DNA of 64,000 nucleotides from Patescibacteria group bacterium (GTDB lineage: Bacteria > Patescibacteriota > Dojkabacteria > GCA-002793355), in contig BOKM01000001.1 in assembly GCA_016860985.1 (NCBI GenBank), forward strand, positions 463,462 through 527,461. Reading direction: 5' to 3'. Numbering within the stretch: the first letter of the stretch is position 1; every line of letters begins with the position of its first letter. The notes beneath the pieces were generated by a model. It was not told the DNA's origin, made no database searches, and saw only the letters and a list, made by a program, of their open reading frames with translations. The position numbers and the translations under genes are program-made. Below, one piece after another: positions 10,274 through 52,747 of the stretch.

Positions 10274-10293
10274 ATTGGACCAATTGTTCAAAG

Positions 10294-10699
10294 TGGAGGT
10301 GAGGGGAATCGAACCCCTGTTCAGCTATTCTAAAAAAGAAGTTTCTCCCAAAACAGTCTGAGTTGTTTACGAGATTATGCCTAAAAATCAGACAAAAAAG
10401 CATAACCCGCCCACACAAATACGATTCTGGCAACTCAGCGGAACTAGCGGCCAGTCGGCATGAACTTTCTTACTCCTGGCTCTCCGCTTGTCATGCGAAG
10501 GAGGAAAAGCCAGTTACGTCGAAATTAGACGTATGAGAATTGCATTGCTGGAGAAACAGCTTTGAGGGCTGAGTTCACGAACGATGCGATTTTCTCAGAA
10601 AGGGTTTGTTTGGCACTTTATGTGCTTTGATAGTTTAACGGGATATCAGCCCGTTTGGCTACTTCTTTCAACGAACAACCGTCTAAACCGATCACCCCC
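10294..10699 (-). ncRNA. ssrA: tmRNA (SsrA), one-piece
   Basis: The minus-strand RNA begins GGGGGUGAUCGGUUUAGACGG and ends GGGGUUCGAUUCCCCUCACCUCCA. The acceptor stem GGGGGUG/CACCUCC contains a G3:U70 pair followed by discriminator A, and CCA is not encoded. A PK1-like hairpin (ACGGG/CCCGU) is present. A TGaTATAAT box (hexamer at 10716-10721) lies upstream. Confidence 0.9.
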
Positions 10700-20045: not shown

Positions 20046-20666
20046 TTATTGGACTCCGGCCTTCTTTAGCTTTGTAATCACAAAATATGTTAATGGTGTT
20101 GCCACTACTTCATATACTACTTTTACGACCCATTGAGTAAGAACCATCGTTACGATTTGTGCCGATGCTAATAGTCCTCCAAATGCGATCCCCAGAAATA
20201 AGATTGTATCTACACCTTCACCGAGCACCGTTGAGGAGATAGTTCTCAACCACAAAAACCTGCCCTTGGTCAATTCCTTGATTTTGTGCATGCTCCAAGC
20301 GTTTAAAAGAGAGCCTCCCAAATAGCCGGAAAATGAAGCAACGAGGATTCTCGGTGCTACACCTAAAATAGCATCAAAGCTGAGCTGTAAATCCCAAAAA
20401 GGAGCAGCAGGCAAGGCTTGGGCAGCAGCGATGGCAAGCACCACAATAAAGTTTGCAACAAAACCAAGTAGAATTGCGAATTTTGCTTTCTGAAATCCAA
20501 ATATCTCCGTCATTACATCTCCAATGATGTAACTTAATGGGAAAACTACTATACCAGCAGGAAGAAAAACGCCACCAAGTCCCACAATTTTTACAGCAAT
20601 TATATTGGCAGCAATCAGACAGGCAATAAATAAAGAGGTCAACCCAACAAAATAACCTGAATACAT
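20046..20666 (-). CDS. yhhQ: YhhQ/VUT-family queuosine-precursor (7-deazaguanine) transporter
   Basis: Polytopic membrane protein with 'YIIGDVMTEIFGFQKAK' and 'TVLGEGVDTILF', characteristic of DUF165/YhhQ. I chose ATG 20666; an upstream TTG at 20675 is also possible. Confidence 0.8.
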   Translation of the reverse strand: MYSGYFVGLTSLFIACLIAANIIAVKIVGLGGVFLPAGIVVFPLSYIIGDVMTEIFGFQKAKFAILLGFVANFIVVLAIAAAQALPAAPFWDLQLSFDAILGVAPRILVASFSGYLGGSLLNAWSMHKIKELTKGRFLWLRTISSTVLGEGVDTILFLGIAFGGLLASAQIVTMVLTQWVVKVVYEVVATPLTYFVITKLKKAGVQ

Positions 20667-20762
20667 AATTTGCAATCAAATTTATCTTTCTACCGATGAT
20701 ACATTAAGTTAGGCCCCCCCTCAATAGCTTGACTATGGGACCGCACTTCTTTAAAATAACGC

Positions 20763-21545
20763 ATGCGCCTTGCGATTATTGCACCAAATGCATATCTGCA
20801 GGATTTTTCAGCTTTTCATAACAACTCATACCATCTTGTTCTTGCACATCGATTCAACTCCGAGCCCGAATACCGTAGTTTTTACATTGAGCAAAGAAAG
20901 AAGACTCACAGTTTTATAATTCTTGATAACGGAGCTTGCGAACTCGGAGAGTCGATTAACAATGGCACACTACTAGAAACTGCCAGTGTCCTTCGTCCTG
21001 ACGTACTTGTTCTTCCCGACGTCTTGCATCAAAGTCAAGCAACAATTGCCAGAACAGAGAAATTCATTGAGTCCTATAAACACCAGAACAAAATAAAGTG
21101 CAAATTGATGGCAGTTGTACAGGGCAAAACAAGAAAGGAGTGGCTCTCAACATTATCTTCCTTTACCTCTAATCCATATATCGATATGATTGGGATTTCG
21201 AGTACAAACGCCGTATACCCGAAGACAAAAAACTACTATACCAGAATCAAAACACTTAGGTATTTGCATCAAAGACAACTTATAGGGAAGAAAAAAATTC
21301 ATATGCTCGGGTTAGATGACTCTGGACACTTCGAATTACGTCATTTCTCAAAATATTCCTTCATCGAAGGAGCAGATTCTAGCGCTCCAGTAGTTCATGG
21401 AGCAAAAGGGATAAAAATTTACAAGAACAAGCGTTACGAAAAGATTCGAACGTATCTACCAAGCGATGCAATCCTCACGAAGGAGCAGGTATTAGCAGTA
21501 AAAGCTAATCTGCAAGTATTTTTTGACATGGCTTCACATGAATAG
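20763..21545 (+). CDS. Minimal tRNA-guanine-transglycosylase (TGT/DpdA) superfamily-like protein
   Basis: 260 aa. Its ordered motifs 'ILDNGACE', 'AVVQGKT', 'MIGISS', 'HMLGLDD' and 'GADSSAPV' parallel the TGT motifs DSGGFQ, GIVQGG, GYAIGG, LMGVGKPDD and FDCVLPT. No C-terminal zinc subdomain is present. Confidence 0.6.
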   Translation: MRLAIIAPNAYLQDFSAFHNNSYHLVLAHRFNSEPEYRSFYIEQRKKTHSFIILDNGACELGESINNGTLLETASVLRPDVLVLPDVLHQSQATIARTEKFIESYKHQNKIKCKLMAVVQGKTRKEWLSTLSSFTSNPYIDMIGISSTNAVYPKTKNYYTRIKTLRYLHQRQLIGKKKIHMLGLDDSGHFELRHFSKYSFIEGADSSAPVVHGAKGIKIYKNKRYEKIRTYLPSDAILTKEQVLAVKANLQVFFDMASHE

Positions 21546-23292
21546 AAAAATATTTGTATCGGGCGAAGGTGCTCGAGGAGCAGGAAAAACCTCTACGTTA
21601 AATGTTCTACTGCAAGAATCTACGACTCCCACTGCTGTTAACAGGGTAGCCCCAAACATACCTACAGAGCACCTTCTTCTGATTGACACTCATAAAGCGA
21701 CAAGCCCGTTTCACAAGAGAGCGCTCGAAATACATAAACAGTGGGAAGAAGCCGTCAAAACCCCAGGTGAAGGTGCAGAGCGATTATCATGGAAAAAGTT
21801 TGAGCTCGGAATACTACAGCTACGGTATGAATCCGACAGCTATCACGACGCAACTAGCAAAGCGGAGCAAATTTTTCTCGATAGAGATATTGATACAGCT
21901 GTCGTATACTCTGCAGCAGAGATTATTTTATCCAATCCTCACAAATACGATTCGGTACGTTCGCATATTGCGCTACTACACAATCTATGGCAGAAAGTAT
22001 ATTCAGTATGCCAGACAAACGACTGGGACGTGAGCACTTTTCCACACCTTGATACCGAAGATGATGTCTTATCATTAGTTGATTTTTTAAAACAACAACC
22101 CTTAAGGGATATACCCACTAATACCTTTTACTTCTTTACAAAAGATAAGACTGAATCACTAAAAAGGAGCCACACTTTACGTATAGACACTGCACTCGAA
22201 TACAATCTCACCGTAGTACAGCAAGCAACACAAGATATTATCCAACCATTGTACCTCTATTCCTTTCTCATCCGAAAACAATTATTCCCTGAGGCGCAAG
22301 TTCATTATCTCTCTTCAGATGCGCACAACATCAAAGAGCTCGCGAATTTGGTAAAACTACATGTTAATACGACGACGCTTGAGGTTCCAGGCGCAGACCA
22401 TATCCCCGTTAAGCTACGAATACCTTTTAACAAAGACCACTCCCTACCCTCATCCATTGAGACGCTTAGCCAAGTAATATTCGAAAGCACTGTTGGATCA
22501 ACCTTCCCAAGCAAACGAGAAGTACACATTAATGGAGAATCAAATTGTGTTTACAACAATAAGGCACTGTACGAATACGCATCATTACTAGGACTTGGCC
22601 ACATTGAATTCGTCCAAATTCAACGAGAGACATTCTCTGAAACTTGTCCTGTCCACTGGGCGTGTATTGAGTGGCTTACTCCCCAAAGAGATACTGCACG
22701 AATAATTGATCTGACACCTTTTAGAATTAAGCCCTACATTTCCCAACCTTGTAAAGTTACACACAATGGGGATACATACCAACTGACCTCGCTCACACAA
22801 CAGCCTATTGAATTTACTCAAGTAAAGAAAGAAACGTCATTAATTCCAGAAAGAGCCATGGAATTCGCCTATAACGTTGAATATACTTTCCAGGAAGAAT
22901 CGTTACAAGCATTAACACGTGAGGGATATGAATTGTTAGGCCAATCAAACAACGAATCGCAGAATATATTTTTAACTATTAGGTTAGGAAGATTGTTGCA
23001 GAAACAGGAACGCATCCAAGAGGCAGTCGAATTGCTTGAGCGAGCAGTGACCACTTTCCCGCAAAATCTTATACTTGCCAGGGAAGTTGCAAAGTATGTC
23101 ATTGATGGGTACATTAAATTCGTACCACCGTATTTTTATACTTACCTCAGTAACGCAAACCAGATTCTTGAACGAACTACCCAAACAATGCGAGAACATG
23201 ATATTGATGAAACTGAAATCAATGCGTATTATGAGTATAGGAAATTTATTCCACATGCACTTAAGTTAATCACCGAAGAACATGAAAGTTGA
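21538..23292 (+). CDS. Multidomain protein: TMPK/dNK-like P-loop, transglutaminase-like Cys-His-Asp core, TPR-like tail
   Basis: 'IFVSGEGARGAGKTST' and 'LDRDIDTAVVYS' resemble thymidylate kinase motifs. 'NCVYNN..LLGLG..HWACIEWL..IIDLT' resembles a transglutaminase-like core. The C-terminus is helical-repeat-like. ATG 21538 overlaps the upstream TAG by 8 nt. Confidence 0.55.
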   Translation: MNRKIFVSGEGARGAGKTSTLNVLLQESTTPTAVNRVAPNIPTEHLLLIDTHKATSPFHKRALEIHKQWEEAVKTPGEGAERLSWKKFELGILQLRYESDSYHDATSKAEQIFLDRDIDTAVVYSAAEIILSNPHKYDSVRSHIALLHNLWQKVYSVCQTNDWDVSTFPHLDTEDDVLSLVDFLKQQPLRDIPTNTFYFFTKDKTESLKRSHTLRIDTALEYNLTVVQQATQDIIQPLYLYSFLIRKQLFPEAQVHYLSSDAHNIKELANLVKLHVNTTTLEVPGADHIPVKLRIPFNKDHSLPSSIETLSQVIFESTVGSTFPSKREVHINGESNCVYNNKALYEYASLLGLGHIEFVQIQRETFSETCPVHWACIEWLTPQRDTARIIDLTPFRIKPYISQPCKVTHNGDTYQLTSLTQQPIEFTQVKKETSLIPERAMEFAYNVEYTFQEESLQALTREGYELLGQSNNESQNIFLTIRLGRLLQKQERIQEAVELLERAVTTFPQNLILAREVAKYVIDGYIKFVPPYFYTYLSNANQILERTTQTMREHDIDETEINAYYEYRKFIPHALKLITEEHES

Positions 23293-23794
23293 TCAAGCAA
23301 AACTTGGAGTAGGTACAATCTGTTACCTACACTCAAACGACTCTTACTTACTAGGCGAAAAAAAGTACGGTGGCGCACAAGGTAAAGTTAATGGGTTTGG
23401 TGGCAAGATCGAAACGACAGACCAATCAATCTATGATGCAGTTAAGAGGGAATTTCGTGAAGAAACATCAATCCAACTCAACGCACCCAAGTATTGTGGC
23501 ATTATCGAAATTTTTAAGAACGAGACGAGAAAAGCAATTTTTTATCTGTTTAAAGCAGATGACTTTATCGGCCAACCTCAAGAATCTGAGGAGATGAAAG
23601 TGTACTGGGTGAAAAATACTGAGGTCCCTTTCGAAAAAATGTGGGCATCAGATGCATTATGGCTTCCACTCTTTCTTAAAAATGACAATATACGTGTAAA
23701 ACTTTATTTTCAGGAAGGCAATGACAAAGCAGATCGAATGGAAGTAACCTTTAATGCGACTCTAGATGAAACATATCACGAAAACTTTATCTAA
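23282..23794 (+). CDS. Nudix hydrolase, MTH1/NUDT1-like
   Basis: Nudix box 'GFGGKIETTDQSIYDAVKREFREETSI'. 'NGFGGK', 'ESEEMKVYW', 'PFEKMWASDALWLPLFL' and the rest of the length align with human MTH1. It overlaps the upstream gene by 11 nt. Confidence 0.8.
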   Translation: MKVDQAKLGVGTICYLHSNDSYLLGEKKYGGAQGKVNGFGGKIETTDQSIYDAVKREFREETSIQLNAPKYCGIIEIFKNETRKAIFYLFKADDFIGQPQESEEMKVYWVKNTEVPFEKMWASDALWLPLFLKNDNIRVKLYFQEGNDKADRMEVTFNATLDETYHENFI

Positions 23795-24668
23795 GGTTCC
23801 ATCCTATTTGATAGAAACTATTGAGAAGGAATCTATTCCCTACCTCGAGCAAGTTCGTGTAAAGGAATATTCTAAACGTCTTCCACCACTTGAAGGGCAA
23901 AGAGTTGCAGTAATCCCTTGGAGTGGTGGGTTAGACTCAACAACCAGTCTTATCATGGCGATAGAAGCAGGCATCTCAATCAGGACCATATTTCTGAATT
24001 ACGGACAACCTTACATAAAGAAAGAATTGCTCGCAACCAATAAGTTAGAAAAACTGATACGCGCAAAATATCCGGAAGCAGATTGGACCGAGCATTACAT
24101 AGTCGATGTGAGCTTCATAGACCAGCTTGTGAAATCGAAATTCAACGGAGAATGGGGACATATTTTCCCAATGCGTAACTTTCTCATCCTTGAAGAATCA
24201 GCCGCGATAGCACAACCAAATAGATACACAGAAGTTTGGTTTAGCAGTGTGCAAGGAGAAATGCCTTATTCAGGAGGAGACAAGAGTGTGGTATTTCTCA
24301 CCTATATGAAAGAAATTTTTGGAAAACGGAATATTAATTTAACCACGCCGCTCGTCGGCCTCACAAAGGCAGATATGGTTCAATGGGCTATTGCCCAACT
24401 AGATAGGTTCCGTATTATTCGACATACGATATCCTGCTTCAACGGAGAAGGAGATTCCCACTGTGGTGAATGTCAAGCTTGTTTCAATCGTGCAGTAGCA
24501 TTTTTCGCTGCAAATCAACTCCCACTTAGCGGAGTCCCTTACCACAAAAACGCATTGCAAAATTTTGGAGAAAATTATATTCGTAAACTTGCTAAAGAAA
24601 GTTATTACTCCCCAACAAGAAGAAGCCAGTTACAGCAGTTCATAAACTTTATAAGCCAACAAACATGA
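23766..24668 (+). CDS. QueC-like PP-loop ATPase (7-cyano-7-deazaguanine synthase family)
   Basis: 'VAVIPWSGGLDSTTS' PP-loop, 'NYGQ', 'TTPLVGLTKADM' and the zinc motif 'SCFNG...HCGECQACFNR' parallel E. coli QueC. It carries about 45 extra N-terminal residues. It overlaps the upstream gene by 29 nt. Confidence 0.8.
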   Translation: MKHITKTLSKVPSYLIETIEKESIPYLEQVRVKEYSKRLPPLEGQRVAVIPWSGGLDSTTSLIMAIEAGISIRTIFLNYGQPYIKKELLATNKLEKLIRAKYPEADWTEHYIVDVSFIDQLVKSKFNGEWGHIFPMRNFLILEESAAIAQPNRYTEVWFSSVQGEMPYSGGDKSVVFLTYMKEIFGKRNINLTTPLVGLTKADMVQWAIAQLDRFRIIRHTISCFNGEGDSHCGECQACFNRAVAFFAANQLPLSGVPYHKNALQNFGENYIRKLAKESYYSPTRRSQLQQFINFISQQT

Positions 24669-25534
24669 TTAGCTTTGTTATACCCTCTTATCAGCGAGCA
24701 GACGGTGCAATCTTTATGATACTTAATTTGTTGCACCAAACAGTTTTCACAAAATATCCAACAGAACTAATACTGTCTATTGATGAAACTGATACCCAAA
24801 AAGAATTGTATGCAAACTACATCATTCAAGCAAAAAAAATTGCGCAAGAAATCGTACCTGCATGTAACATATCACTCCTGGTTAATCAGACAAAAGGCTT
24901 AGTCGCAGCAAAGAATAACGCTGTGCGAGCTTCTAAATACGAGTTCATCATGATGCTCGATGATGATCTTGCTGCAGTAGATAATTACGTTGAAGCCTTG
25001 TTAGCCGACATGAAGGCTGCCCCTTCAGTAGGTGCTATTTCAGGATTTATAGTTTCATACCTTTCTGCTATATCTCACACTCAACCCTCCGATTTCATTG
25101 AAGAGGTACCTAAGGAATCGCATCTACAGACACTAAAACTGGACTCCAACAATGGTGCTTGGAGAACATTTTTCGGCAAGAAAGAGCAGGTCATGGATTG
25201 GAGTAGAATCAATAAGAATATTCCTTCTACGGTTCGCTATACCATGGACTATTTTGTCAATTCGTATCTCTTTAGAAGAAGCGCATACAACAAAATAGGT
25301 GGATACTCAAATGATTTAAATTCTAAGACATCTGCCCACGAGGAGGTCGATTTCACTTATAGAATGAGAAAAGCTGGCTACCAACTTCTTTTTAATCCAT
25401 TTGTCCAGATGTGGCATATTACCGTCGGCCACGGAGGTATCTACAAAGGAGCAGATTACAATGAGAGTAAAGAAATCTTAGAAAAAGAGTATAAAGAAAG
25501 TATACCTCTATTTGTTCAGTCGATTTCCAGGTAG
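24665..25534 (+). CDS. Glycosyltransferase family 2
   Basis: 'SFVIPSYQRADG' and 'IMMLDDDL' (DxD) match a GT2 fold. The start overlaps the upstream stop as ATGA. Confidence 0.75.
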   Translation: MISFVIPSYQRADGAIFMILNLLHQTVFTKYPTELILSIDETDTQKELYANYIIQAKKIAQEIVPACNISLLVNQTKGLVAAKNNAVRASKYEFIMMLDDDLAAVDNYVEALLADMKAAPSVGAISGFIVSYLSAISHTQPSDFIEEVPKESHLQTLKLDSNNGAWRTFFGKKEQVMDWSRINKNIPSTVRYTMDYFVNSYLFRRSAYNKIGGYSNDLNSKTSAHEEVDFTYRMRKAGYQLLFNPFVQMWHITVGHGGIYKGADYNESKEILEKEYKESIPLFVQSISR

Positions 25535-25577: not shown

Positions 25578-26372
25578 ATGAAATCCCCGTATGTTCAGGG
25601 TTTGAAACAGGGGTTCGCCGAACTTTCAGTCTACTCTCTCGATTTCCTGTTTGGGTTATTCCAAGCAGTTGCGCTTGTCGGCTTTGAAATACTCCTGTGG
25701 ACTTTTGTCCTCCCTGCTGATAACCAAACTGCCCTATTTGAACGCACCTCTTATTTTTTGCTAGCCAATGGCATTGCCTTGGTAATCGGAGGTGCCCGAT
25801 ATCGCTTTGCCAGAGATTTATCACTCGTCATCAAAGAGGGAACGTTGTCGCACTACCTTCTTAAACCGATTAATCCTGTACTTTACATCTATTCAGAACA
25901 TGTTGGAGGAAAAGGACCAGATTTTATGATCGGATTAATTTTTATAATCATGGGAACTTTGTGGATACCGACCTTTACGCTCGTTAAGCTACCATTGTTG
26001 TTGATAACGCTGGCTGCAGCTCTCATAAATACAATCTCACTAAACGTTATCGCAGGGGCTGTAGCCTTTTGGACAACCGAGGCAAACGGTATTAAGAATG
26101 CCTTTGCGCAAACAACGCGATTATTTAACGGACAGCAAGTTCCCATCAATCTTTTCATGGAAATGATCAGTCCTTTTTGGGCGCAATTCTTGTATATTCT
26201 CCCCTTCGCAAGTGTTGCATATACGCCAACGCACATAGTTATTGCCAAAACATTCGACGCAATAGATTTTAGATTTATCATCGCTTCGATTATCTGGGCG
26301 TTCATTCTCCCGTTACTCGCAACACTAATTTGGAATAGAGGACTCAAACGATATGAGGGGACTGGTCTCTAA
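25578..26372 (+). CDS. ABC-2 type transporter permease
   Basis: 264 aa with about 6 TM segments, in an ABC-2 (DUF990-like) permease pair followed by an ATPase. TGtTAAACT box at 25560-25568. Confidence 0.65.
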   Translation: MKSPYVQGLKQGFAELSVYSLDFLFGLFQAVALVGFEILLWTFVLPADNQTALFERTSYFLLANGIALVIGGARYRFARDLSLVIKEGTLSHYLLKPINPVLYIYSEHVGGKGPDFMIGLIFIIMGTLWIPTFTLVKLPLLLITLAAALINTISLNVIAGAVAFWTTEANGIKNAFAQTTRLFNGQQVPINLFMEMISPFWAQFLYILPFASVAYTPTHIVIAKTFDAIDFRFIIASIIWAFILPLLATLIWNRGLKRYEGTGL

Positions 26373-27171
26373 CCTACGATTCTACTTTCGAGTACTTGCA
26401 AAAAAGATTTTGTTTGCCTGGCAGATAGAAACGGCTTACGCAGGGAACACGATAGGTGAGCTTTTTTCAACCATTTTTTACAACATTACCTTTATTATTT
26501 TTATCGATATTGTACTGCGAAAATATAAGCTGCTCGCTGGCTACTCTTTCAACGATATGCTGGTACTTGTTTTTGTGACACAGATTGTATTCTATACAGG
26601 ACTAACTATTACTTACGATAGCATGTCAAAATTCGTACAATCTGTAAGAGATGGTATTTTTGATACGTACCTTCTCAAACCGATGTCTGTTTTCTTTCAA
26701 GTGATGACCTTAAGCATCAGGCCGTTTTCTGGGCTGTTCTTTTCTGTTCCACCATTGCTAATTTATGTAGTGCTCATCATTAAAAATCAAGCATTTCATC
26801 CCGAACCTTTTGGGCTAACGGTTGGCTTACTTGGAATGTTGGTTGGGATTCTCTACCTTCATTTTTATCGATTTACGTTTGCGATGTTCGTGTTTAAAAC
26901 AAAACAGGTAAAAAACCTACTCAAAACACTTGACCTACTTGGGGATGCTGGATCTTTTCCCTACGAGGCTTATGTTGAACCGTTTAGAACAATTGTCTTT
27001 TTTATTGCGCCATTTCTTGCTGCGGCTGCCATTCCTGCAACCTACTTCTTAAACAAAACGACTTCTCTTTGGCCATTTGTTATTCAGATTGGACTCATGC
27101 TATTTTTTATGACTACTGCACTACTTTTATGGAGAAAAGGATTAAAAGAATATGAATCAATTTCATCTTAA
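26353..27171 (+). CDS. ABC-2 type transporter permease
   Basis: 272-aa polytopic paralogue-like partner. It overlaps the upstream permease gene by 20 nt. Confidence 0.65.
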   Translation: MRGLVSNLRFYFRVLAKKILFAWQIETAYAGNTIGELFSTIFYNITFIIFIDIVLRKYKLLAGYSFNDMLVLVFVTQIVFYTGLTITYDSMSKFVQSVRDGIFDTYLLKPMSVFFQVMTLSIRPFSGLFFSVPPLLIYVVLIIKNQAFHPEPFGLTVGLLGMLVGILYLHFYRFTFAMFVFKTKQVKNLLKTLDLLGDAGSFPYEAYVEPFRTIVFFIAPFLAAAAIPATYFLNKTTSLWPFVIQIGLMLFFMTTALLLWRKGLKEYESISS

Positions 27172-27186
27172 TTATTCACCCCTATT

Positions 27187-28170
27187 ATGAAACCAGTTAT
27201 CACTACACAAAACCTCAAAAAGGATTTTCTTGTTCCTGCACGACAGTCATTTTGGCAAAGACTGTTTACTCCAAAATACGAAGAAGTCACGGCTGTCGAC
27301 AACATTTCTTTTCACATTATGGAAGGCGAATCTGTTGCACTTCTTGGACCGAATGGCGCGGGCAAAACAACAACCATGAAAATGATGACCGGCATACTTT
27401 ATCCAACAGCCGGAAGTTGCAATGTGCTTGGATACAACCCTAATAAACGCAACCCTGCGATGCTTAAAAACATTGGCTTTGTAATGGGCAATAAAAGCAC
27501 GCTTTCTATGGACCTTTCCCCTATGCAAAACTACGAGCTTAACAGAGTTATTTACGATATTGATGCCACAAGATTTTATAACACGATAGACGAACTTGGG
27601 GAACTTCTTGAGGTAAAAGATCATTTATATAAACAAACACGAAAACTCTCGCTTGGACAAAGAATGAAAGCGGAAATGATAAACTCGATACTACACAGAC
27701 CGAAGATTCTCTTTCTAGACGAACCGACCATTGGACTAGACATCTCCTCTCAGAACAATATTCGCACATTTCTTAAAAAAGTTAACAAAGAGCTAGGAAC
27801 GACGATTATCCTTACGAGCCACAATATGGAAGATATTTCACAAGTTTCTGAAAGAGTACTTATAATCAATCAAGGCAAACTCGTTTACGACAACTCTCTC
27901 GAAATGCTGAAGCGGACTTTTTCAACAAAAAAATACATCAAGGTTATTGTTACAACAAAAGGAAACTCCCGCTCCTTTGAGAAAAAGTTTAAGCCATTTG
28001 GTGACATTGTCAGCTCTGGTAAAGATTTCGTGACGCTCGAAATTGATAAAAACAGACAGGCACCCATTATTGCAGCAATACTCAACATGGAGCACGTTCA
28101 TGATATCGATATTGAGGGGGTACCACTCACAAAAATCATAGAATCGATTTTCAAGAAAAAACTTGATTAG
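27187..28170 (+). CDS. ABC transporter ATP-binding protein
   Basis: Walker A 'GPNGAGKTTT', signature 'LSLGQRMK' and Walker B 'ILFLDEPTIGLD'. Confidence 0.92.
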   Translation: MKPVITTQNLKKDFLVPARQSFWQRLFTPKYEEVTAVDNISFHIMEGESVALLGPNGAGKTTTMKMMTGILYPTAGSCNVLGYNPNKRNPAMLKNIGFVMGNKSTLSMDLSPMQNYELNRVIYDIDATRFYNTIDELGELLEVKDHLYKQTRKLSLGQRMKAEMINSILHRPKILFLDEPTIGLDISSQNNIRTFLKKVNKELGTTIILTSHNMEDISQVSERVLIINQGKLVYDNSLEMLKRTFSTKKYIKVIVTTKGNSRSFEKKFKPFGDIVSSGKDFVTLEIDKNRQAPIIAAILNMEHVHDIDIEGVPLTKIIESIFKKKLD

Positions 28171-28178
28171 GTTACGTA

Positions 28179-29060
28179 TTACTTTGTTACTTGCAGTGTT
28201 TTCATAACCGAATCACAAATGGCGATGTACGACGCATCGATTGAACAATACGCACTAAACCAAATGTCCTTATTGTAGGTTAAGGCGGGTGAAGCACAAG
28301 GCGATGTAGTCGCATCAGAAATAACAGGTTCTGTGCACTCTTTCCCACTCGAGAGAGAAGAAGGCGTCACATACGCAACAGCAAAGCTGTAGCTACCCGA
28401 ATTACCAAATACCTTTTTAGAACGAACTCTTTTTAAATCCTTAATTGATGAACTCACATTGGTTAGTGATGAGTAACCCTGAATTTCATACAACTCATAA
28501 GGGAGGTTAAACGCCATAAAGGCCTTCGTTCCCTTTCGTAAGAGAATGCCATTCCAGGTCCCAATTTTTGTTTCTGATACCGTCACATCTGCCGGCAATT
28601 TCATAGTAAAAGTGAGTGTAAAACTACCCTCCCACTCTTTAATTTTGGCCGTCTTTGTTACTGTAGATGCGGTGGCAGTCGGGGTTGGCGTTGAGGTTGC
28701 AGAAGGTGTTGGAGATTCTGTTGGTGTATCAGAAACCGAAGGAGTCACACTCTCGGTTGGGGTAGGTGTGACGGTCACAGTAGGAGTTGGAGTCAATGGT
28801 GTTGGTGTTTTTTGTTTGCCGGCATAAAAGCCCAAAGCGGAGGCGAGTGCAATAAGCGCGACTACTAGGCCAATTATCAATCCTTTTGATAATGACTGCG
28901 ATTGCACTTGAGGCTCAATCTGCGGCTGGCTATCTAACTGAACGCCTTCTGCATTTGCTTCAGGCATATTTGTTGGCTGTGAAATTTCCATAATGAAGAG
29001 TAGCGCGAATTTTCGAATCTGTAAAATGAAATGCCTCTGGCGAAAATTCGCGCAAAACAT
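28179..29060 (-). CDS. Membrane-anchored surface protein with Thr/Pro-rich linker
   Basis: TM segment 'LIIGLVVALIALASALGFYAG', then 'TPTPLTPTPTVTVTPTPTESVTPS...STPTPTATAS', then a ~150-aa globular C-terminal domain. An alternative start is ATG 28991. Confidence 0.65.
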   Translation of the reverse strand: MFCANFRQRHFILQIRKFALLFIMEISQPTNMPEANAEGVQLDSQPQIEPQVQSQSLSKGLIIGLVVALIALASALGFYAGKQKTPTPLTPTPTVTVTPTPTESVTPSVSDTPTESPTPSATSTPTPTATASTVTKTAKIKEWEGSFTLTFTMKLPADVTVSETKIGTWNGILLRKGTKAFMAFNLPYELYEIQGYSSLTNVSSSIKDLKRVRSKKVFGNSGSYSFAVAYVTPSSLSSGKECTEPVISDATTSPCASPALTYNKDIWFSAYCSIDASYIAICDSVMKTLQVTK

Positions 29061-38066: not shown

Positions 38067-39866
38067 CTATACTGCAAAGTTTCCAACTTCTGCCTCTGTT
38101 ACTTCTGCAAGATCTTCTCCTTTCATGGTAATTGAACATGTCTGCATACCTGCGTTAAACGACACCTGTTCGAGTTGCGCAATAGCGCTATCCATGTACA
38201 CTTTCATGCCCAAAAGATTGCCAAAAGGAGGGACTCCCCCAACTTTAATACCATAGGTCGCGAGAATGTTCTCTGGCTTCTCAAACTCTGCTTTTTCTCC
38301 AATGGCGGCAGTTACTGCTTCAAAGGATATTTTTTTATCGCCTGGAATAACTACCATAACCGGAGTATTGGTCTTTTTTCCAGAAAGAATAAGCGCCTTT
38401 GCTCCATTAGAGAGAGATGTTCCTCGAAGCGCTGCGGCCTCTTCACTTGTTCGCACAGCTTCGTGTTCAGAAAATTCGTATGCAACTGCACGGCTATCAA
38501 GTATTTTTTTAATTTTTGCCACAACTTCCTTATCAGAACCAAGCTTTTCCTTGATTCTATTTGCACCTGCGATTCTCTTGAGATCAGAAGGGAATAAGGT
38601 TGCCTCTCGGATATTTTGCAAGTTGAACAACTTCATGGTTAATCGCTCAAGTCCAAAAGAAAATCCTGCCTCTGAAGGCATTCCGTATTTAAAGGCTTGG
38701 AAATAGTGCTCGTAATACGCTTCAGACAAGCCTTGCTCTTTAAATCTTTCGAAAAGCTTTTCGTATTCGTGGATACGATGGGTACCTGAAAGCATTTCAA
38801 GACCTCTAAACTCAAGGTCAAAGCTAAGAGATTCCGAAGCTTCTTCTGGGTTATCCCATGTATAAAAGTTTTTGTTGCTTTTAAAGTTTACAACCCACAG
38901 AAAATCTGAACCTTTTTCCTCTAATGCCCACTTGCTAATCTCACGCTCGTCTTCCGGATCGAGGTCTAACTCCTCTCGTTCTGCTGACTTTCCGATTCTT
39001 CTTTCTATAATCTCCAAAGCTTCTCGAACTTTTATTTTCGGAAATCGACCATTTGGTAATTTGGGAAGCTCAACCCCATACAAGGCGAACACATCTTTTG
39101 AGGTCTCCACTACACCATCAACAATATGTCGAATAACATTTTCAGCAATCTGCATGGCCTCGTCGTAATTATCAATAAAGCCCATCTCCGCATCCATTTG
39201 CGTGAGTTCCATTATGTGGCGGGTAGTATTATGCTTCTCTGCTCGAAAAACGGGACCGACACAGAAAGCGCGTTCAAAGGCTGTAACCATAATTTGCTTA
39301 TAAACCTGTGGCGACTGCGCCAAATATGCTTTTCCTTCAAAGTAGTTCACTTCAAAAACACTTGCACCACTTTCAGACGGAGCACTCATAATTACCGGTG
39401 ACTTAAATTCGGTAAAACCTTGAGAGCGTAGAGATTCCGCAAACTTTTGTAAAATAACCGCTTGTACTTTAAAAATTGCTTGTTTTTTAAGATTTCTTAG
39501 CACCAAAGGTCTGTAATCCAACTCTGTGTCGATATTGACATCAATTGATTTTTTGTTGTACGAAACCGGTGGAACTTCCTTAATTGGGACCTTTATTTCG
39601 ACCGTAGGGTTAACTACTTCAACACCAATATCTGTTGAGTCAGTTTTTTTTACCGTTCCCACAACACGAACAACACTTCCGGGTTGCAACGACGCTAATT
39701 CTTTTAACGTATCTTTATTATCAACAACTACCTGAACTAAGCCACCTCGATCACGAACAATCAAGAAACCGAGTTTGCCTAACTCACGAAAGTTATGAAG
39801 CCACCCATCAAGGCGTACTTCTTTGCTCTCATATCCAGAGAGCTCTGTTGAAATAATACGTTCCAT
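38067..39866 (-). CDS. aspS: Aspartyl-tRNA synthetase (archaeal-type class IIb) fused to a C-terminal YbaK/ProX-like aminoacyl-tRNA editing domain
   Basis: OB-fold N-terminus, 'FRAEKHNTTRHIMELTQMDAEM', 'GFSFGLERL' and the core ending 'REATLFPSDLKR'. An extra ~155 aa then follow, with 'KALIL', 'VVIPGDKKISF' and 'GIKVGGVPPFG' of the tRNA_edit family. Confidence 0.85.
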   Translation of the reverse strand: MERIISTELSGYESKEVRLDGWLHNFRELGKLGFLIVRDRGGLVQVVVDNKDTLKELASLQPGSVVRVVGTVKKTDSTDIGVEVVNPTVEIKVPIKEVPPVSYNKKSIDVNIDTELDYRPLVLRNLKKQAIFKVQAVILQKFAESLRSQGFTEFKSPVIMSAPSESGASVFEVNYFEGKAYLAQSPQVYKQIMVTAFERAFCVGPVFRAEKHNTTRHIMELTQMDAEMGFIDNYDEAMQIAENVIRHIVDGVVETSKDVFALYGVELPKLPNGRFPKIKVREALEIIERRIGKSAEREELDLDPEDEREISKWALEEKGSDFLWVVNFKSNKNFYTWDNPEEASESLSFDLEFRGLEMLSGTHRIHEYEKLFERFKEQGLSEAYYEHYFQAFKYGMPSEAGFSFGLERLTMKLFNLQNIREATLFPSDLKRIAGANRIKEKLGSDKEVVAKIKKILDSRAVAYEFSEHEAVRTSEEAAALRGTSLSNGAKALILSGKKTNTPVMVVIPGDKKISFEAVTAAIGEKAEFEKPENILATYGIKVGGVPPFGNLLGMKVYMDSAIAQLEQVSFNAGMQTCSITMKGEDLAEVTEAEVGNFAV

Positions 39867-40057
39867 GGGGAATTATAACGCAACACAATCGAGAATGAAA
39901 TAAACGTTGACCTGCCCACTGCCGCACGAAGTCGTATAATACGAGTATGGTTTATCATTCAGCAACAAAAGAGAATTGCGAACTCGTACTCCCTCCCTTA
40001 TCACTTAACTAAAAACCTTTTCAGTTGAATCAGCCAAAATTCGGTGCAAAATATAGT

Positions 40058-40765
40058 ATGGAGACAATTAAACTACACTATTTTCAAAAAGAGTTATTAA
40101 AGAAACTCACACTTTCTGCCAAAGGACTTCGGTTCAACGAACTACTGATCGAAGGACTGGAAAGTGAGCACATGAATTACCATCTACAAAAACTTATTGA
40201 GTTCGAGCTGGTACAGAAACAAGAGCAATACTATCAACTAACAGATGAAGGAAAAGACTACTCGAATCAGCTTGATGACAATGTCGACGTTGTCGAAAAA
40301 CAGCCAAAGACATCGGTTCTGCTGGTAGTTGTTCGATACAACAAAGAAAAGAAAGAGGAAGAATACCTTGTGAATAAACGACTACGCCAACCATATTACG
40401 GAAAGGTAGGATTACTCACAGGGAAAGTCCGTTTCGGTGAATCTTTGGAACAAGCAGTCAAGAGAGAACTCTACGAAGAATCAGGGCTTTCTGCCGGGTT
40501 AGTAAAACTACTCAGCATTTATCACAAAATACGAACAAAAGGTGTGGAAACCGTTCAAGATGTAATCTTTTACAGGCATTTAGTCACAGAAATTTCTGGA
40601 GACCTCATCACTAAAACTGCGTTTCAAGAAAATTTTTGGGCAACTGCAAAAGAGCTGCAACAAAGAGACGATCGATACGATACCTTTCAGTTGAAATCAA
40701 CCGAGGCATACTTACAAGATATGCTCACGTACACAGAGGACATAGGAGTTGCAAAAGATTTTTAA
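40058..40765 (+). CDS. Winged-helix (ArsR/MarR-like) N-terminal domain fused to a Nudix hydrolase domain
   Basis: 'FQKELLKKLTLSAKGLRFNELL...NYHLQKLIEFELV' is wHTH-like. The Nudix box is 'GKVRFGESLEQAVKRELYEESGL'. An alternative TTG start is at 40025. Confidence 0.7.
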   Translation: METIKLHYFQKELLKKLTLSAKGLRFNELLIEGLESEHMNYHLQKLIEFELVQKQEQYYQLTDEGKDYSNQLDDNVDVVEKQPKTSVLLVVVRYNKEKKEEEYLVNKRLRQPYYGKVGLLTGKVRFGESLEQAVKRELYEESGLSAGLVKLLSIYHKIRTKGVETVQDVIFYRHLVTEISGDLITKTAFQENFWATAKELQQRDDRYDTFQLKSTEAYLQDMLTYTEDIGVAKDF

Positions 40766-42377: not shown

Positions 42378-43025
42378 ATGCAAAAGGTTACCATCTACGA
42401 GCTCTACGATATTCTGGAACGCGCGACCAAAGGGTTTCCAGAACCACTTGCCGAACACGTATTTCATTGGACAAAATCACCCTTTTTCACCCTTGTATCC
42501 ACAGTACTTTCAGCTCGAACAAAAGATAGCCTTACAATTACAAAACTCCCCGATTTATGGAGCACTGCGAAAACTCCGCTCGAGTTTTCGCAGCTCACCA
42601 CAGAACGACTCGAGCCAATGCTCCGCCCCATCGGTTTTTACAAAACGAAGGCACATCATTTAATCGACCTCGGAGCGATTGTTCACCAGCAATACAACGA
42701 TGTCGTCCCTTCTAATATGGAAGATTTACTTAAACTTCCAGGAGTTGGAAGAAAAACGGCGAATTTGCAGCTTTCTGTTGTTAATAATATTCCTGCAATT
42801 TGTGTTGATACTCATGTTCACCGCATCATGAATCACATTGGGTACGTTAAAACCAATACTCCTGAACAAACGGAATTTGCGCTACGAAAAAAACTTCCTA
42901 TGGATTTATGGAACAAAACTAACTACCTTCTTGTACTCACTGGGCAAAATCTAGCAAATCACATTCAGATTAAAGATCCCAACAACATACTAAACACCTA
43001 CGAGCTTATCGAGCGAGTCCGCTAA
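42378..43025 (+). CDS. nth: Endonuclease III-like HhH-GPD DNA glycosylase lacking the Fe-S cluster motif
   Basis: 'LSARTKD', 'LPGVGRKTANL' (HhH plus catalytic Lys) and 'VDTHVHRI' (Asp). There is no C-terminal Cx6Cx2Cx5C. TATAAT lies 8 nt upstream of the ATG. Confidence 0.8.
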   Translation: MQKVTIYELYDILERATKGFPEPLAEHVFHWTKSPFFTLVSTVLSARTKDSLTITKLPDLWSTAKTPLEFSQLTTERLEPMLRPIGFYKTKAHHLIDLGAIVHQQYNDVVPSNMEDLLKLPGVGRKTANLQLSVVNNIPAICVDTHVHRIMNHIGYVKTNTPEQTEFALRKKLPMDLWNKTNYLLVLTGQNLANHIQIKDPNNILNTYELIERVR

Positions 43026-52673: not shown

Positions 52674-52712
52674 ACAGGATTGTACCACTAGCAGCCGAAA
52701 TTGCCGTAGTAT

Positions 52713-52741
52713 TTTACTTACACACTGCCACGTTATATAAT
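52713..52741 (+). promoter_or_regulatory. Candidate promoter for the ileS leader (-35 TTTACT, 17-nt spacer, -10 TATAAT)
   Basis: TTTACT at 52713-52718 and TATAAT at 52736-52741. It lies upstream of the T-box leader. Confidence 0.35.
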
Positions 52742-52747
52742 TACTCA

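Follow-up and report, generated by a model that had tools for sequence, protein, structure and literature searches.

The QueC-like gene in the 64-kb window (the whole stretch of DNA that was analysed) stands fourth in a conserved cassette whose genes are translationally coupled. Its product belongs to a large QueC-like family, here termed GDKS-type, and keeps conserved catalytic and base-binding residues. The cassette occurs in seven independent Patescibacteria-type loci with differing flanks, so the gene is not the orphan that an earlier sequence-only reading had described. Modification of DNA with 7-deazaguanines has been described in phages (DpdA1-4) and in bacteria, there as the Dpd restriction-modification system. 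On balance, we lean towards a reading in which the GDKS-type protein would carry out an active step, as an amidoligase adenylating 7-carboxy-7-deazaguanine (CDG), in a six-gene base-salvage and nucleic-acid modification module of Patescibacteria. To our knowledge and in the literature searched, the cassette would be the first case of a DpdA3-type system established in the chromosomes of cells, with genome-reduced episymbionts that must scavenge the base as hosts.

The QueC-like protein and the GDKS-type family

The QueC-like ORF matched the Pfam QueC profile PF06508 with 85 bits (cut-off 22; E 6.8e-24) over residues 48-247, covering profile positions 2-207 of 210. By this score, the PP-loop and the four-Cys site, the protein is assigned to the QueC/ExsB superfamily, and both motifs on which the sequence-only reading had based the same assignment were located (Table 1). 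The Cx8Cx2Cx2C spacing is identical to that of QueC, and the site is also present in Cap9 and QatC. The proposed colinearity with QueC held as well, with residues 44-244 aligned to residues 1-209 of the solved QueC 2pg3 (E 3.5e-12) and a further match to 3bl5. The canonical enzymes (3bl5, 2pg3) share with the QueC-like ORF the PP-loop Rossmann core, SGGxDS, the zinc site, about 200 colinear residues, the RN and D contacts to base or AMP-CDG and the lysine of LxK(A)D. They differ from it in that identity is 25-30%, the mid loop is shorter in the QueC-like ORF, both of its termini are extended and its gene is unlinked to folE, queD and queE here.

Table 1. Features of the cassette and of the QueC-like ORF (nucleotide positions in the window; aa, residues of the QueC-like ORF)
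Feature	Position	Strand	Basis or remark
YhhQ/Vut_1 queuosine-precursor (7-deazaguanine base) transporter	20046..20675	-	Vut_1 168 bits; divergent from operon
DpdA3-like guanine transglycosylase (predicted), minimal TGT-fold TIM barrel, 260 aa	20763..21545	+	Fold, tblastn, profile
589-aa multidomain protein (584 aa in public gene call)	21523..23292	+	Kinase-like, Cys-His-Asp and TPR-like parts
Nudix hydrolase, MutT/NudG-like (d)NTP pyrophosphohydrolase type, 170 aa	23282..23794	+	Pfam NUDIX 38 bits
QueC-like ORF	23766-24668	+	ATG start, 300 aa
N-terminal segment, EQVRVKEYS	aa 1-47, nt 23766..23906	+	Conserved in clade A
PP-loop SGGLDS (ATP pyrophosphatase motif)	aa 53-58, nt 23922-23939	+	S53, G55, L56, D57, S58 invariant in 29 sequences
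YGQPYIKKE (YGQPYxxKE)	aa 79-87, nt 24000-24026	+	Replaces QueC YGQRHxxE, one-residue insertion
Family signature VQGEMPYSGGDKS	aa 162-174, nt 24249-24287	+	Stands for QueC (C/N)xTD(F/Y)SGYPDCR; D172 kept
Zinc site SCFNGEGDSHCGECQAC, Cx8Cx2Cx2C	aa 223-239, nt 24432-24482	+	C224, C233, C236, C239 invariant in alignment
C-terminal extension of ~55 aa, YYSPTRRSQ (YYSxxRRxQ)	aa ~245-300, nt 24498..24665	+	Conserved; canonical QueC without it
GT2-family (GT-A) glycosyltransferase, 289 aa	24665..25534	+	Glycos_transf_2 41.7 bits; start overlaps QueC-like stop codon

Besides these motifs, K201, E87, R137-N138 and D172 were conserved in the alignment. R137-N138 and D172 are the counterparts of residues that hold deazaguanine or AMP-CDG in Cap9 (R86, D117) and in RoyL of the roseomycin pathway, where the contacts are R104, N105 and D132 and the amine/ammonia pocket is formed by Y41/H45/E48 (bioRxiv 10.64898/2026.04.15.718813). 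RoyL was compared by description, with its numbering mapped by motif position and thus inferred; it keeps the Y/H/E pocket, whereas in the QueC-like ORF Y79 and E87 are kept, His is replaced by Y83 (Trp in clade B) and one residue is inserted.

The protein is placed outside canonical QueC by scores, motifs and tree, which agrees with its earlier designation as a non-canonical member. It reached 69.1 bits against a cut-off of 150.3 with the QueC equivalog TIGR00364 and 51.2 bits against 378 with PRK11106 (QueC). The canonical motifs YGQRHxxE and (E/N)xD(F/Y)SGYPDCR are absent, with YGQPYIKKE and QGEMPYSGGDKS in their place; in the QueC proteins of phages VogelGryff, phiSM, BcepGomr and MaInes, the canonical motifs are present. 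In a distance-based neighbour-joining tree of 79 sequences, the split of canonical QueC had 85% bootstrap support, leaving the QueC-like ORF outside, and clade A, which contains it, was monophyletic (82%) and nested among GDKS-type phage proteins. By sequence, the gene is of phage ancestry.

The replacement of the mid-region, which the sequence-only reading had pointed out, is real: VQGEMPYSGGDKS aligned opposite CETDFSGYPDCRD of 2pg3, so that TDFSGYPDCR of QueC has become GEMPYSGGDKS (GE.P.SGGDKS where canonical QueC has (E/N)xD(F/Y)SGYPDCR), alongside the change from YGQRH to YGQPY with an insertion. It is not peculiar to this protein, however, as GE.P..GGDKS is the signature of a large family and was found in nearly all of the best 150 cluster representatives. 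The family, previously unnamed and called GDKS-type in this analysis, was defined by GE.P..GGDKS, by a tail of 55-80 residues behind the final zinc Cys and by either an N-terminal segment or a HAD domain; the QueC-like ORF carries the motif and the extension. It comprised 96 clusters at E <= 1e-30, and about one third of the relatives were fused to a HAD phosphatase. A large uncharacterised QueC-like family is thus defined, often HAD-fused and with the ammonia pocket and base-stacking motif remodelled.

The size excess over QueC had been attributed to about 45 extra N-terminal residues. These are present, and 16 homologs (42-82% identity) show the same conserved stretch from Met1 to EQxRVKEYS; the segment is therefore coding and not a miscalled start. 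The C-terminal extension of about 55 aa had been overlooked, as had YGQPYxxKE and the genes around the QueC-like ORF. The stretch past the last zinc Cys measures 55-80 residues in GDKS-type proteins and 14-25 in canonical QueC. Profile positions ~15-45 also matched the linker that joins the HAD domain to the core in relatives of ~400 aa.

On phage contigs, GDKS-type genes fill the slot of QueC, between a DpdA and QueD/QueE/FolE. By these gene neighbours, the family may work in CDG-pathway chemistry, and an isofunctional, preQ0-making QueC is the simplest reading of the phage genes, in which case the gene would be chemically ordinary. The known dPreQ0 chemistry of CAjan-like and Rosebush-like phages (the latter via BcepGomr) is not transferable to the GDKS-type, because the QueC of these phages is of the canonical type. 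By tblastn against GenBank phages, the HAD-QueC-like protein P0060, the GT2 and the 589-aa protein had none or one weak match each, so that in this search no characterised phage was seen to encode them.

The cassette and its neighbouring genes

In the window, the operon runs DpdA3-like, kinase-like multidomain, Nudix, QueC-like and GT2 genes with overlapping gene ends, and is flanked by uvrA and an aaRS. The five-gene set recurs in L002, L004, L005, L006 and L015 with unrelated flanks and a QueC-like identity of 42-57%. In the seventh locus, L003, the DpdA3-like, kinase-like, QueC-like and Nudix genes are kept and the glycosyltransferase differs; amino-sugar genes (DegT, hexose dehydratase) and an RNase_T exonuclease surround this variant. 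Downstream of the cassette, an ABC-2 exporter is encoded in the window but none in L002, L004, L005 or L006; in L003, one is found close by. The transporter YhhQ, which scored 118.9 bits with the NCBIfam model TIGR00697 "queuosine precursor transporter" (cut-off 50.95), adjoins the cassette in four of the seven loci (window, L002, L004, L015).

That folE, queD and queE are not nearby had been stated earlier and holds within the 64 kb by profile and six-frame searches. No match to GTP_cyclohydroI, PTPS, QueE-type radical SAM, QueF or TGT was found that would mark folE, queD, queE, queF or tgt, and a six-frame search with four to five diverse phage queries each for FolE, QueD, QueE, QueF and DpdA gave none at E <= 0.1. 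No riboswitch was found upstream of yhhQ or of the operon, and the promoter/terminator scan stayed at chance level (27 promoter-like sites, 20 expected). The host is a member of the Patescibacteria, which are generally biosynthesis-poor, with a genome of ~1.05 Mb.

The 260-aa protein was without a Pfam match, and structure prediction was needed since a sequence search of the PDB returned none. The AF2 model (pLDDT 95.4) had its best PDB folds in Z. mobilis TGT and the DNA preQ0 insertase DpdA (7ui4). D55, D86 and D205 are invariant and spaced as D95, D130 and D256 of DpdA. By tblastn, the protein matched Campylobacter phage CP220 gp056 and the "DNA guanine transglycosylase" of Flavobacterium phage immuto at E 2e-10 to 6e-9, and by profile immuto at E 1e-34 and CP220 at E 3e-27. 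The transglycosylases of both phages belong to the DpdA3 subfamily (PMC10516641). By fold, the three Asp and homology, the protein is classed as DpdA3-type and predicted to exchange guanine in DNA for a 7-deazaguanine. DpdA3 has never been reconstituted, and the attempts of the authors of that study failed (PMC10516641).

The 589-aa protein begins with a thymidylate/deoxynucleoside-kinase-like P-loop domain of ~285 aa, continues with a middle domain in which Cys342, His378 and Asp396 are invariant, and ends in TPR-like helical repeats with weak TPR matches. A profile of the N-terminal half matched thymidylate kinases of the PDB (3hjn, E 8.4e-6) in an alignment that takes in the P-loop and DRxxDxxxxY, and L003 has a homolog of this half as a stand-alone kinase-like gene of 247 aa. 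The C-terminal half had no Pfam or PDB sequence match except the weak TPR. The AF2 model was poor (pLDDT 57; shallow alignment from a homolog search that returned four proteins) and useful in the fold search for the kinase domain only. Nothing was found by Foldseek at E <= 0.001; deoxyadenosine kinase 8puu came first (E 1.5e-3), followed by thymidylate kinases (5nrn etc.) from E 3.5e-3. From the invariant residues, a hydrolase or transferase role may be proposed for the Cys-His-Asp domain; a papain- or transglutaminase-like nature is a guess.

The Nudix gene had weak NCBIfam matches to MutT and pyrimidine dNTP diphosphatase and lies directly upstream of the QueC-like gene in six loci and downstream in L003. 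The GT2 scored 29.8 bits with TAGT, the TET-associated DNA glycosyltransferase (cut-off 27.5), and matched PHROG 842 "beta-glucosyl-HMC-alpha-glucosyltransferase" at E 3e-7; it also resembles exopolysaccharide transferases (NCBIfam). Downstream of the QueC-like gene, L004, L005 and L006 have orthologs of this GT2 (49-55% identity), L002 and L015 have a cassette-type GT2, and L003 has a GT1 at the corresponding place. The pathway roles of kinase, Nudix and GT2 are predicted from gene adjacency only.

Candidate pathway and comparison with known systems

In the reading we favour, a 7-deazaguanine base would be imported by the YhhQ-type permease and its 7-substituent tailored by the QueC-like enzyme. 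The latter would bind ATP and the CDG moiety, adenylate the 7-carboxylate and transfer the acyl group to an amine. If ammonia is used, 7-amido-7-deazaguanine and perhaps also preQ0 would result; since the ammonia pocket is remodelled, a different amine may be used instead. The DpdA3-like protein would then swap the base for guanine, in DNA or at the deoxynucleotide level, and the GT2 would add a sugar in the fourth step. On the deoxynucleotide route, the Nudix would turn dGTP into dGMP and the thymidylate-kinase-like domain would re-phosphorylate the modified dNMP. The target is probably DNA or the dNTP pool, and we infer the substrate, the nucleophile, the order of steps, DNA as target and glycosylation of the base. 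The linked glycosyltransferase, dNMP-kinase-like domain and Nudix suggest an undescribed, possibly glycosylated deazaguanine derivative.

Supply by salvage is suggested by the adjacent YhhQ in four of seven loci and by the absence of de novo genes from the 64 kb. Should preQ0 or preQ1 be what YhhQ imports, a CDG-activating enzyme would be without an obvious substrate, so that either CDG itself is imported, the de novo genes lie elsewhere or another enzyme regenerates CDG. The sequence-only reading had proposed an imported precursor or a nucleic-acid context in place of de novo preQ0 synthesis. The importer and the DpdA3-like gene fit this proposal; ordinary conversion of CDG to preQ0/ADG is possible too, because phage GDKS-type genes sit beside QueD, QueE and FolE.

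A nucleotide-level route is hinted at by the thymidylate-kinase-like domain, the MutT-like Nudix, the HAD-fused relatives and the kinases beside phage DpdA3 genes. In its fullest form, a phage-derived chromosomal pathway would convert the scavenged base into an amide-linked, glycosylated deoxynucleotide that enters the cell's own DNA through the dNTP pool, with the Nudix yielding dGMP, DpdA3 as nucleotide-level exchanger, the kinase recharging the product and the GDKS-type protein as CDG-nucleotide amidoligase; we regard this as quite unlikely. DpdA3 occurs in phages with fully substituted DNA, and Cui et al. regard its insertion as post-replicative (PMC10516641). The cassette bears on whether the fully substituted genomes of DpdA3 phages are made before or after replication, and the dNTP-pool route, if true, would explain their 100% guanine replacement.

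The cassette shares with the DpdA3 phage clusters (CP220, Cellulophaga phiST, immuto; PMC10516641) a homologous DpdA3, 7-deazaguanine chemistry and a P-loop kinase and NTP phosphohydrolase close by. The DpdA3 genes of phages CP220, immuto and BSTP12 adjoin P-loop kinases, and those of CP220 and immuto also adjoin an HD or MazG-like NTP phosphohydrolase. The cassette differs from these clusters in being chromosomal and cellular, in having the YhhQ importer instead of FolE, QueD and QueE, and in its GDKS-type partner, GT2 and Cys-His-Asp/TPR domain, the last two having no relative among GenBank phages. The pair of DpdA3 and GDKS-type QueC-like genes was found in none of 47 viral DpdA3 loci, and the pairing is therefore without characterised precedent. 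At the phage locus L007, a 260-aa and a 304-aa protein were considered as homologs of the cassette GT2 and DpdA3-like protein and rejected (hhalign probabilities 11% and 5%). The GT2-like match there was weak and unproven (Pfam E 0.029), and the 304-aa protein is taken, from its motifs only, to belong to another DpdA subfamily.

In the bacterial Dpd system (dpdA-K), DpdA/DpdB put preQ0 into DNA and DpdC makes dADG (PMC10164549). The cassette resembles it in being cellular and in its TGT-fold DNA transglycosylase, queuosine-pathway bases and three active-site Asp. It differs in that the transglycosylase is of the 260-aa DpdA3 type and not the ~413-aa bDpdA, and in that the candidate tailoring enzyme is QueC-like and not DpdC. 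The DpdB ATPase, DpdC and restriction genes (helicase, nuclease) were not found at the cassette or its flanks in generic Pfam, NCBIfam and PADLOC scans. Gat-QueC of phage 9g and archaea (archaeosine base/dG+) likewise has an added N-terminal part and works with DpdA in DNA modification, but the N-terminal part of the QueC-like ORF is 45-47 aa without a class-II glutamine amidotransferase match (Pfam), and larger GDKS-type relatives carry a HAD phosphatase and not a GATase. Modifications of the proposed kind are of practical relevance to restriction evasion, to sequencing artefacts in CPR metagenomes and as a source of new nucleic-acid chemistry.

Alternative readings

The gene could encode a divergent isofunctional QueC (CDG to ADG to preQ0) that feeds tRNA queuosine, with the de novo genes and tgt elsewhere and the neighbours coincidental or loosely related. 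All known catalytic and zinc residues are kept, GDKS-type genes stand in for QueC beside phage QueD, QueE and FolE, and YhhQ is a normal component of queuosine salvage. Nevertheless, we consider this unlikely given equivalog scores far under their cut-offs (69 vs 150 and 51 vs 378), replaced ammonia-pocket and base-stacking motifs, coupling with DpdA3-like, kinase, Nudix and glycosyltransferase genes in seven loci with different flanks, and the lack of de novo genes in the 64 kb of a ~1.05-Mb Patescibacteria genome. Very unlikely, in our judgement, is a deazaguanylation like that of Cap9/QatC, in which CDG would be attached to the N-terminus of a partner protein in anti-phage defence with the TGT-like neighbour as Cap10. 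Type IV CBASS is marked by the pairing of a QueC-like with a TGT-like protein, and Cap9 and QatC (QatABCD) have QueC-like cores, extra variable regions, the same zinc site and a proposed mechanism in which CDG is adenylated and then attacked by a non-ammonia amine. In the QueC-like ORF, the additional segments at both termini could serve to bind a partner protein, and there were weak matches to QatC (27 bits, residues 177-261) and, confined to the PP-loop region, to Cap9 9nto_B (E 4.7e-4). The QatC score is nonetheless far under its cut-off of 280, the TGT-like neighbour is DpdA3 and not Cap10, the relatives share phage replication modules with QueD, QueE and FolE, and the context is one of nucleic acids and not of defence signalling. 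CD-NTase, QatA, QatB, QatD and Cap11 were not found, and PADLOC reported a generic QueC and the weak QatC with no partner component, so a defence-system reading of the cassette was rejected.

Alternatively, the module could yield a small molecule, namely a 7-deazapurine nucleoside, nucleotide or glycoside comparable to tubercidin, huimycin or roseomycin, with the salvaged base processed by a RoyL-type amide synthetase and the product exported. RoyL, although encoded in an actinomycete BGC, is likewise a QueC homolog that has diverged in sequence and in its amine pocket and joins CDG to non-ammonia amines, and RoyL-type homologs attach amino acids or dipeptides. The tubercidin pathway, without QueC and built on CDG, includes a PF00293-family enzyme, and glycosyltransferases are used in the huimycin and dapiramicin pathways. 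The ABC-2 exporters of the window and L003 and the amino-sugar genes of the latter would also fit. This reading is thought improbable as well, since the exporter is absent after the cassettes of L002, L004, L005 and L006, a DpdA3-like transglycosylase is not known to act in such pathways, which use phosphoribosyltransferases, and the RNase_T exonuclease in L003 points to nucleic acid.

PF00293 is the Pfam NUDIX family; the tubercidin paper names the enzyme in question a haloacid dehalogenase.

The QueC-like gene and its operon

The QueC-like ORF has an ATG start, encodes 300 aa and is the fourth of five genes with overlapping ends, so the label "orphan" that the sequence-only reading had given it does not apply. 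The features of the protein were confirmed and are not due to chance; a check of the motif coordinates placed the PP-loop, the four-Cys zinc site and the replaced mid-region where that reading had seen them. The Pfam QueC match covered residues 48-247 with 85 bits (E 6.8e-24), and the claimed colinearity with QueC was borne out by alignment of residues 44-244 to the solved QueC 2pg3 (E 3.5e-12) and by a further alignment to 3bl5. The N-terminal extension of about 45 residues was also found to be genuine: 16 homologs (42-82% identity) keep the first 45-47 residues ("EQxRVKEYS"), Met1 onwards, so this stretch is coding and the start is not miscalled. Two features had been overlooked, a conserved C-terminal extension of approximately 55 residues and a change of the QueC element "YGQRHxxE" to "YGQPYxxKE" with one residue inserted.

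The product of the first gene yielded an AlphaFold model with a pLDDT of 95.4, whose top solved folds were the Zymomonas tRNA-guanine transglycosylase and the DNA preQ0 insertase DpdA (7ui4). Its tblastn matches were gp056 of phage CP220 (Campylobacter) and a protein annotated as "DNA guanine transglycosylase" in the Flavobacterium phage immuto; the family profile recovered them with E values of 3e-27 and 1e-34, respectively. These matches correspond to the DpdA3 subfamily of Cui et al. (PMC10516641), which was identified in phages with completely replaced guanine. The invariant D55, D86, and D205 of the 260-aa family are spaced as the invariant D95, D130, and D256 of DpdA. From the model and these matches, the protein is a predicted DpdA3-like transglycosylase.

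The N-terminal ~285 residues of the 589-aa protein have their homolog in L003, the variant locus, as a separate gene of 247 aa. The profile of this half matched PDB thymidylate kinases (3hjn, E 8.4e-6) across the P-loop and "DRxxDxxxxY". Foldseek with the weak model of the full protein listed a deoxyadenosine kinase first and then thymidylate kinases (E 1.5e-3 to 1e-2), with zero matches at E <= 0.001. The C-terminal half had no Pfam or PDB sequence match; its invariants are S-N-C342-V, P-V-H378-W, and I-I-D396-x-T-P-F, and TPR-like helices come after them. The AF2 model is of poor quality, and this Cys-His-Asp domain is at a guess a putative papain/transglutaminase-like hydrolase or acyltransferase.

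The GT2 glycosyltransferase additionally matched PHROG 842, "beta-glucosyl-HMC-alpha-glucosyltransferase" (E 3e-7), and the TAGT family that it also matches is a phage DNA-base glycosyltransferase family. The transporter passed the NCBIfam "queuosine precursor transporter" equivalog with 118.9 vs 50.95 bits.

Coordinates of the cassette (operon and divergent yhhQ), of motifs in its proteins and of related loci on other contigs
Feature	Location	Strand	Remark
YhhQ/Vut_1 transporter	20046-20675	-	Divergent, 87 bp upstream of operon
DpdA3-like transglycosylase, 260 aa	20763-21545	+	No Pfam match; predicted from AlphaFold and phage homology
589-aa protein	21523-23292	+	N-terminal thymidylate-kinase-like
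Putative Cys342/His378/Asp396 domain	22546-22710		Within ORF 21523-23292
Nudix hydrolase	23282-23794	+	Pfam 38 bits; MutT/NudG-like
QueC-like enzyme	23766-24668	+	Pfam QueC PF06508
PP-loop SGGLDS	aa 53-58, nt 23922-23939	+	QueC-like ORF
Altered mid-region VQGEMPYSGGDKS	aa 162-174, nt 24249-24287	+	QueC-like ORF; aligned to "CETDFSGYPDCRD" of QueC
Zinc site SCFNGEGDSHCGECQAC	aa 223-239, nt 24432-24482	+	QueC-like ORF
GT2 glycosyltransferase	24665-25534	+	Glycos_transf_2 41.7 bits; TAGT 29.8 bits vs cut-off 27.5
Variant cassette	L003 3478-12323		Kinase-like domain split off, 247 aa
HAD-fused or ~400-aa GDKS-type gene	L064 8001-9197		
HAD-fused or ~400-aa GDKS-type gene	L065 3774-4991		
HAD-fused or ~400-aa GDKS-type gene	L019 3600-4769		
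DpdA3 + P-loop kinase	L014 7814-10307		Campylobacter phage CP220
DpdA3 + P-loop kinase	L066 5222-7945		Flavobacterium phage immuto
DpdA3 + P-loop kinase	L067 4372-5720		Bacillus phage BSTP12
DpdA3 + P-loop kinase	L110 5609-6936		

Relatives in bacteria and phages

Against the NCBIfam QueC equivalog TIGR00364 the window protein scored 69 bits vs a cut-off of 150, and against PRK11106 51 bits vs 378; by its scores it is predicted to be QueC-like and not a canonical QueC. Only 29 relatives emerged when 5.8 billion proteins were searched by word index. They fall into clade A, with proteins of about 300 aa and 42-100% identity, and clade B, with proteins of about 270 aa and about 30% identity. With a full profile search over 1.84 billion cluster representatives, 96 clusters reached E <= 1e-30 and 2398 reached E <= 1e-10. 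Among the top 150 representatives, nearly all carry the motif GE.P..GGDKS (the family is here called GDKS-type) and extend for 55-80 residues beyond the last zinc Cys, vs 14-25 in canonical QueC. About one third of GDKS-type members are ~390-410 aa long, and both ~400-aa members scanned (P0060 and P0072; L064 and L065) begin with a HAD-type phosphatase domain (DxDxT). These fusions lie in phage DpdA/QueD/QueE/FolE clusters. In a distance-based neighbour-joining tree (79 sequences, 100 bootstraps, Cap9, QatC, RoyL and ToyM not included), clade A was monophyletic with 82% bootstrap and nested among GDKS-type sequences, its nearest neighbour being the phage protein P0057. Canonical QueC, including that of phages VogelGryff, phiSM, BcepGomr, and MaInes, split off at 85%; the comparison with canonical QueC proposed earlier thus leaves clade A outside it.

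The cassette order DpdA3-like, kinase-like, Nudix, QueC-like, GT2 was repeated in L002, L004, L005 (= L016), L006, and L015, where the QueC-like proteins show 42-57% identity to that of the window and the flanks are unrelated. YhhQ is adjacent in four of seven independent loci. The variant L003 has the order DpdA3-like, stand-alone kinase-like, QueC-like, APH-type kinase, Nudix, RNase_T exonuclease, and GT1 glycosyltransferase. The source record is annotated as "Patescibacteria group bacterium", with 1.05 Mb for the longest contig, and one relative comes from a Candidatus Saccharimonadia MAG (GCA_038230095.1). MFZ6022072.1 belongs to the same >=90% identity cluster as the window protein.

Outside clade A, GDKS-type genes lie on phage-like contigs and occupy the slot expected for QueC. 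They are typically arranged as ParB_N, a DpdA from another subfamily, QueC-like, QueD, QueE, and FolE (L007-L010, L018, L020, L064, L065, and L069). As the family sits in this slot beside QueD, QueE and FolE, products of the pathway to CDG (7-carboxy-7-deazaguanine) are its predicted substrates. Characterised phages with known modifications (CAjan-like Seuratvirus, phiSM, and BcepGomr, whose QueC is "similar to Rosebush gp3" per its database record) carry the canonical type, and a HAD-fused GDKS-type member had no match among GenBank phages, so the product of the GDKS-type cannot be read from known cases. Escherichia phage VogelGryff (Seuratvirus; L062 6025-7332) has an annotated "preQ0 transporter YhhQ" directly after its canonical QueC, and the QueC-YhhQ pairing is thus also found in phages.

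None of 47 viral DpdA3 loci carried a GDKS-type gene, their QueC being canonical-like or lacking within 10 kb, which makes the pairing of DpdA3 and GDKS-type in Patescibacteria a new combination. The GT2 and 589-aa genes are essentially without phage relatives. DpdA3 directly adjoins small P-loop (thymidylate/NadR-like) kinases in unrelated phages, and non-homologous NTP phosphohydrolases stand beside it in CP220 (HD) and immuto (MazG-like). This arrangement parallels the kinase and Nudix of the window and would agree with a step of DpdA3 systems at the nucleotide level.

Predicted chemistry, pathway and alternatives

Residues S53, G55, L56, D57, S58, E87, R137, N138, D172, K201, and the four Cys do not vary among the 29 aligned sequences, which include canonical ones. 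In the crystal structure of Cap9 (type IV CBASS), D117 holds the deazaguanine, R86 and Y115 stack, and the SxGxDS loop binds pyrophosphate. R104, N105, and D132 of RoyL, a QueC homolog of the roseomycin pathway, contact AMP-CDG (bioRxiv 10.64898/2026.04.15.718813), and the lysine K309 of QatC (QatABCD) contacts the gamma-phosphate. These contacts match R137-N138, D172, and K201 of the window protein by position, so its apparatus to bind ATP and to hold a 2-amino-4-oxo-7-deazapurine looks intact. The stacking Tyr of QueC "YPD" is replaced by Gly ("GGD") and the next Cys-Arg by Lys-Ser, and the His of "YGQRHxxE" by Tyr in clade A and by Trp in clade B. The amine pocket of RoyL consists of Y41, H45, and E48 (bioRxiv 10.64898/2026.04.15.718813), which by their spacing would map onto the "YGQRHxxE" element. 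We infer that base and ATP chemistry is retained, with a remodelled pocket at the nucleophile and above the base, which is compatible with another amine or a bulkier N9-substituted substrate and proves neither.

In the proposed mechanism, the QueC-like enzyme would adenylate the 7-carboxylate of a CDG moiety and then transfer the activated acyl group to an amine as one step of a salvage-fed pathway. The DpdA3-like transglycosylase would install the tailored 7-deazaguanine in nucleic acid, after which the GT2 would add a sugar. The enzyme is likely to be an active CDG-activating ligase that functions as part of the cassette, the chance that the cassette modifies nucleic acid is about even or slightly better, and any specific product is doubtful. 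The finding would be a 7-deazaguanine nucleic-acid modification made by known enzyme superfamilies, with a new host group and gene combination and probably a new product. No description of the cassette or the GDKS-type family was found in the full-text literature searched, the coverage of which is incomplete, and this is absence of evidence only.

Known substrates of YhhQ are preQ0 and preQ1. The main weakness of the mechanism is the source of CDG if one of these is imported, because the transporter would then supply none and leave a CDG-activating enzyme without substrate. CDG itself may be imported, de novo genes may lie elsewhere in the genome, or another enzyme, perhaps the Cys-His-Asp domain acting on a nitrile or amide, may regenerate the acid. 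Four observations suggest a nucleotide-level version of the pathway, which is possible but not likely: the 589-aa protein has a thymidylate-kinase-like domain, the Nudix is MutT-like, GDKS-type relatives include HAD fusions, and phage DpdA3 lies beside P-loop kinases (CP220, immuto and BSTP12) and NTP phosphohydrolases (CP220 and immuto). Use of modified dGTP by DNA polymerase was earlier proposed for Campylobacter phages (ref. 36 in Hutinet et al., PMC6884629), and post-replicative insertion was favoured by Cui et al. (PMC10516641).

An isofunctional QueC serving tRNA queuosine, with which the transporter and the shared catalytic residues agree, is unlikely given the sub-threshold equivalog scores, the replaced motifs and the conserved operon. 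FolE, QueD, QueE, QueF, TGT, and QueA were absent from Pfam scans of the 64-kb window, 40 further ORFs included, and six-frame searches of the 64 kb with several diverse phage FolE, QueD, QueE, QueF, and DpdA queries found none; the earlier claim that folE, queD and queE are missing nearby stands. A pathway to a small-molecule deazapurine nucleoside or glycoside, with a RoyL-like ligase, is also improbable. The position of L003 inside an amino-sugar gene cluster, next to DegT aminotransferase and hexose dehydratase genes, speaks for it; the RNase_T exonuclease of L003 and the DpdA3-like transglycosylase, a type that is not known to act in small-molecule pathways, speak against it. Protein deazaguanylation or a defence system of the Cap9/QatC kind is a very improbable reading.

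Surrounding chromosome

The remaining window is ordinary chromosome with mur ligases, ddl, uvrABC, aminoacyl-tRNA synthetases, and ftsK, and its composition did not differ from that of the cassette. A tmRNA (Rfam RF00023, 92 bits) is located at 10291-10699 (-), and no tRNA genes were found in the 64-kb window. The cassette is followed on its own strand by two ABC2_membrane_6 permeases and an ABC ATPase (25578-28170, +). Because L002, L004, L005, and L006 lack them at this place, they are probably not part of it. A different ABC-2 exporter is found nearby in L003.

Some 16-18 kb downstream of the cassette, the window encodes a second Nudix (246 aa; 40025-40765, +) and a HhH-GPD base-excision glycosylase (42378-43025, +). 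A class II aminoacyl-tRNA synthetase (tRNA-synt_2, OB anticodon domain) with a C-terminal YbaK/ProX-type tRNA_edit domain is encoded at 38067-39866 (-), an unusual fusion that recurs at L002 20005-20900. At 50853-52766 (-), the bacterial chromosome carries an ATP-dependent DNA ligase with three domains (DNA_ligase_A_N/M/C). The 293-aa protein at 28179-29060 (-), which has long Thr/Pro/Ser-rich repeats after a hydrophobic segment and no Pfam match, is probably a surface or secreted protein.
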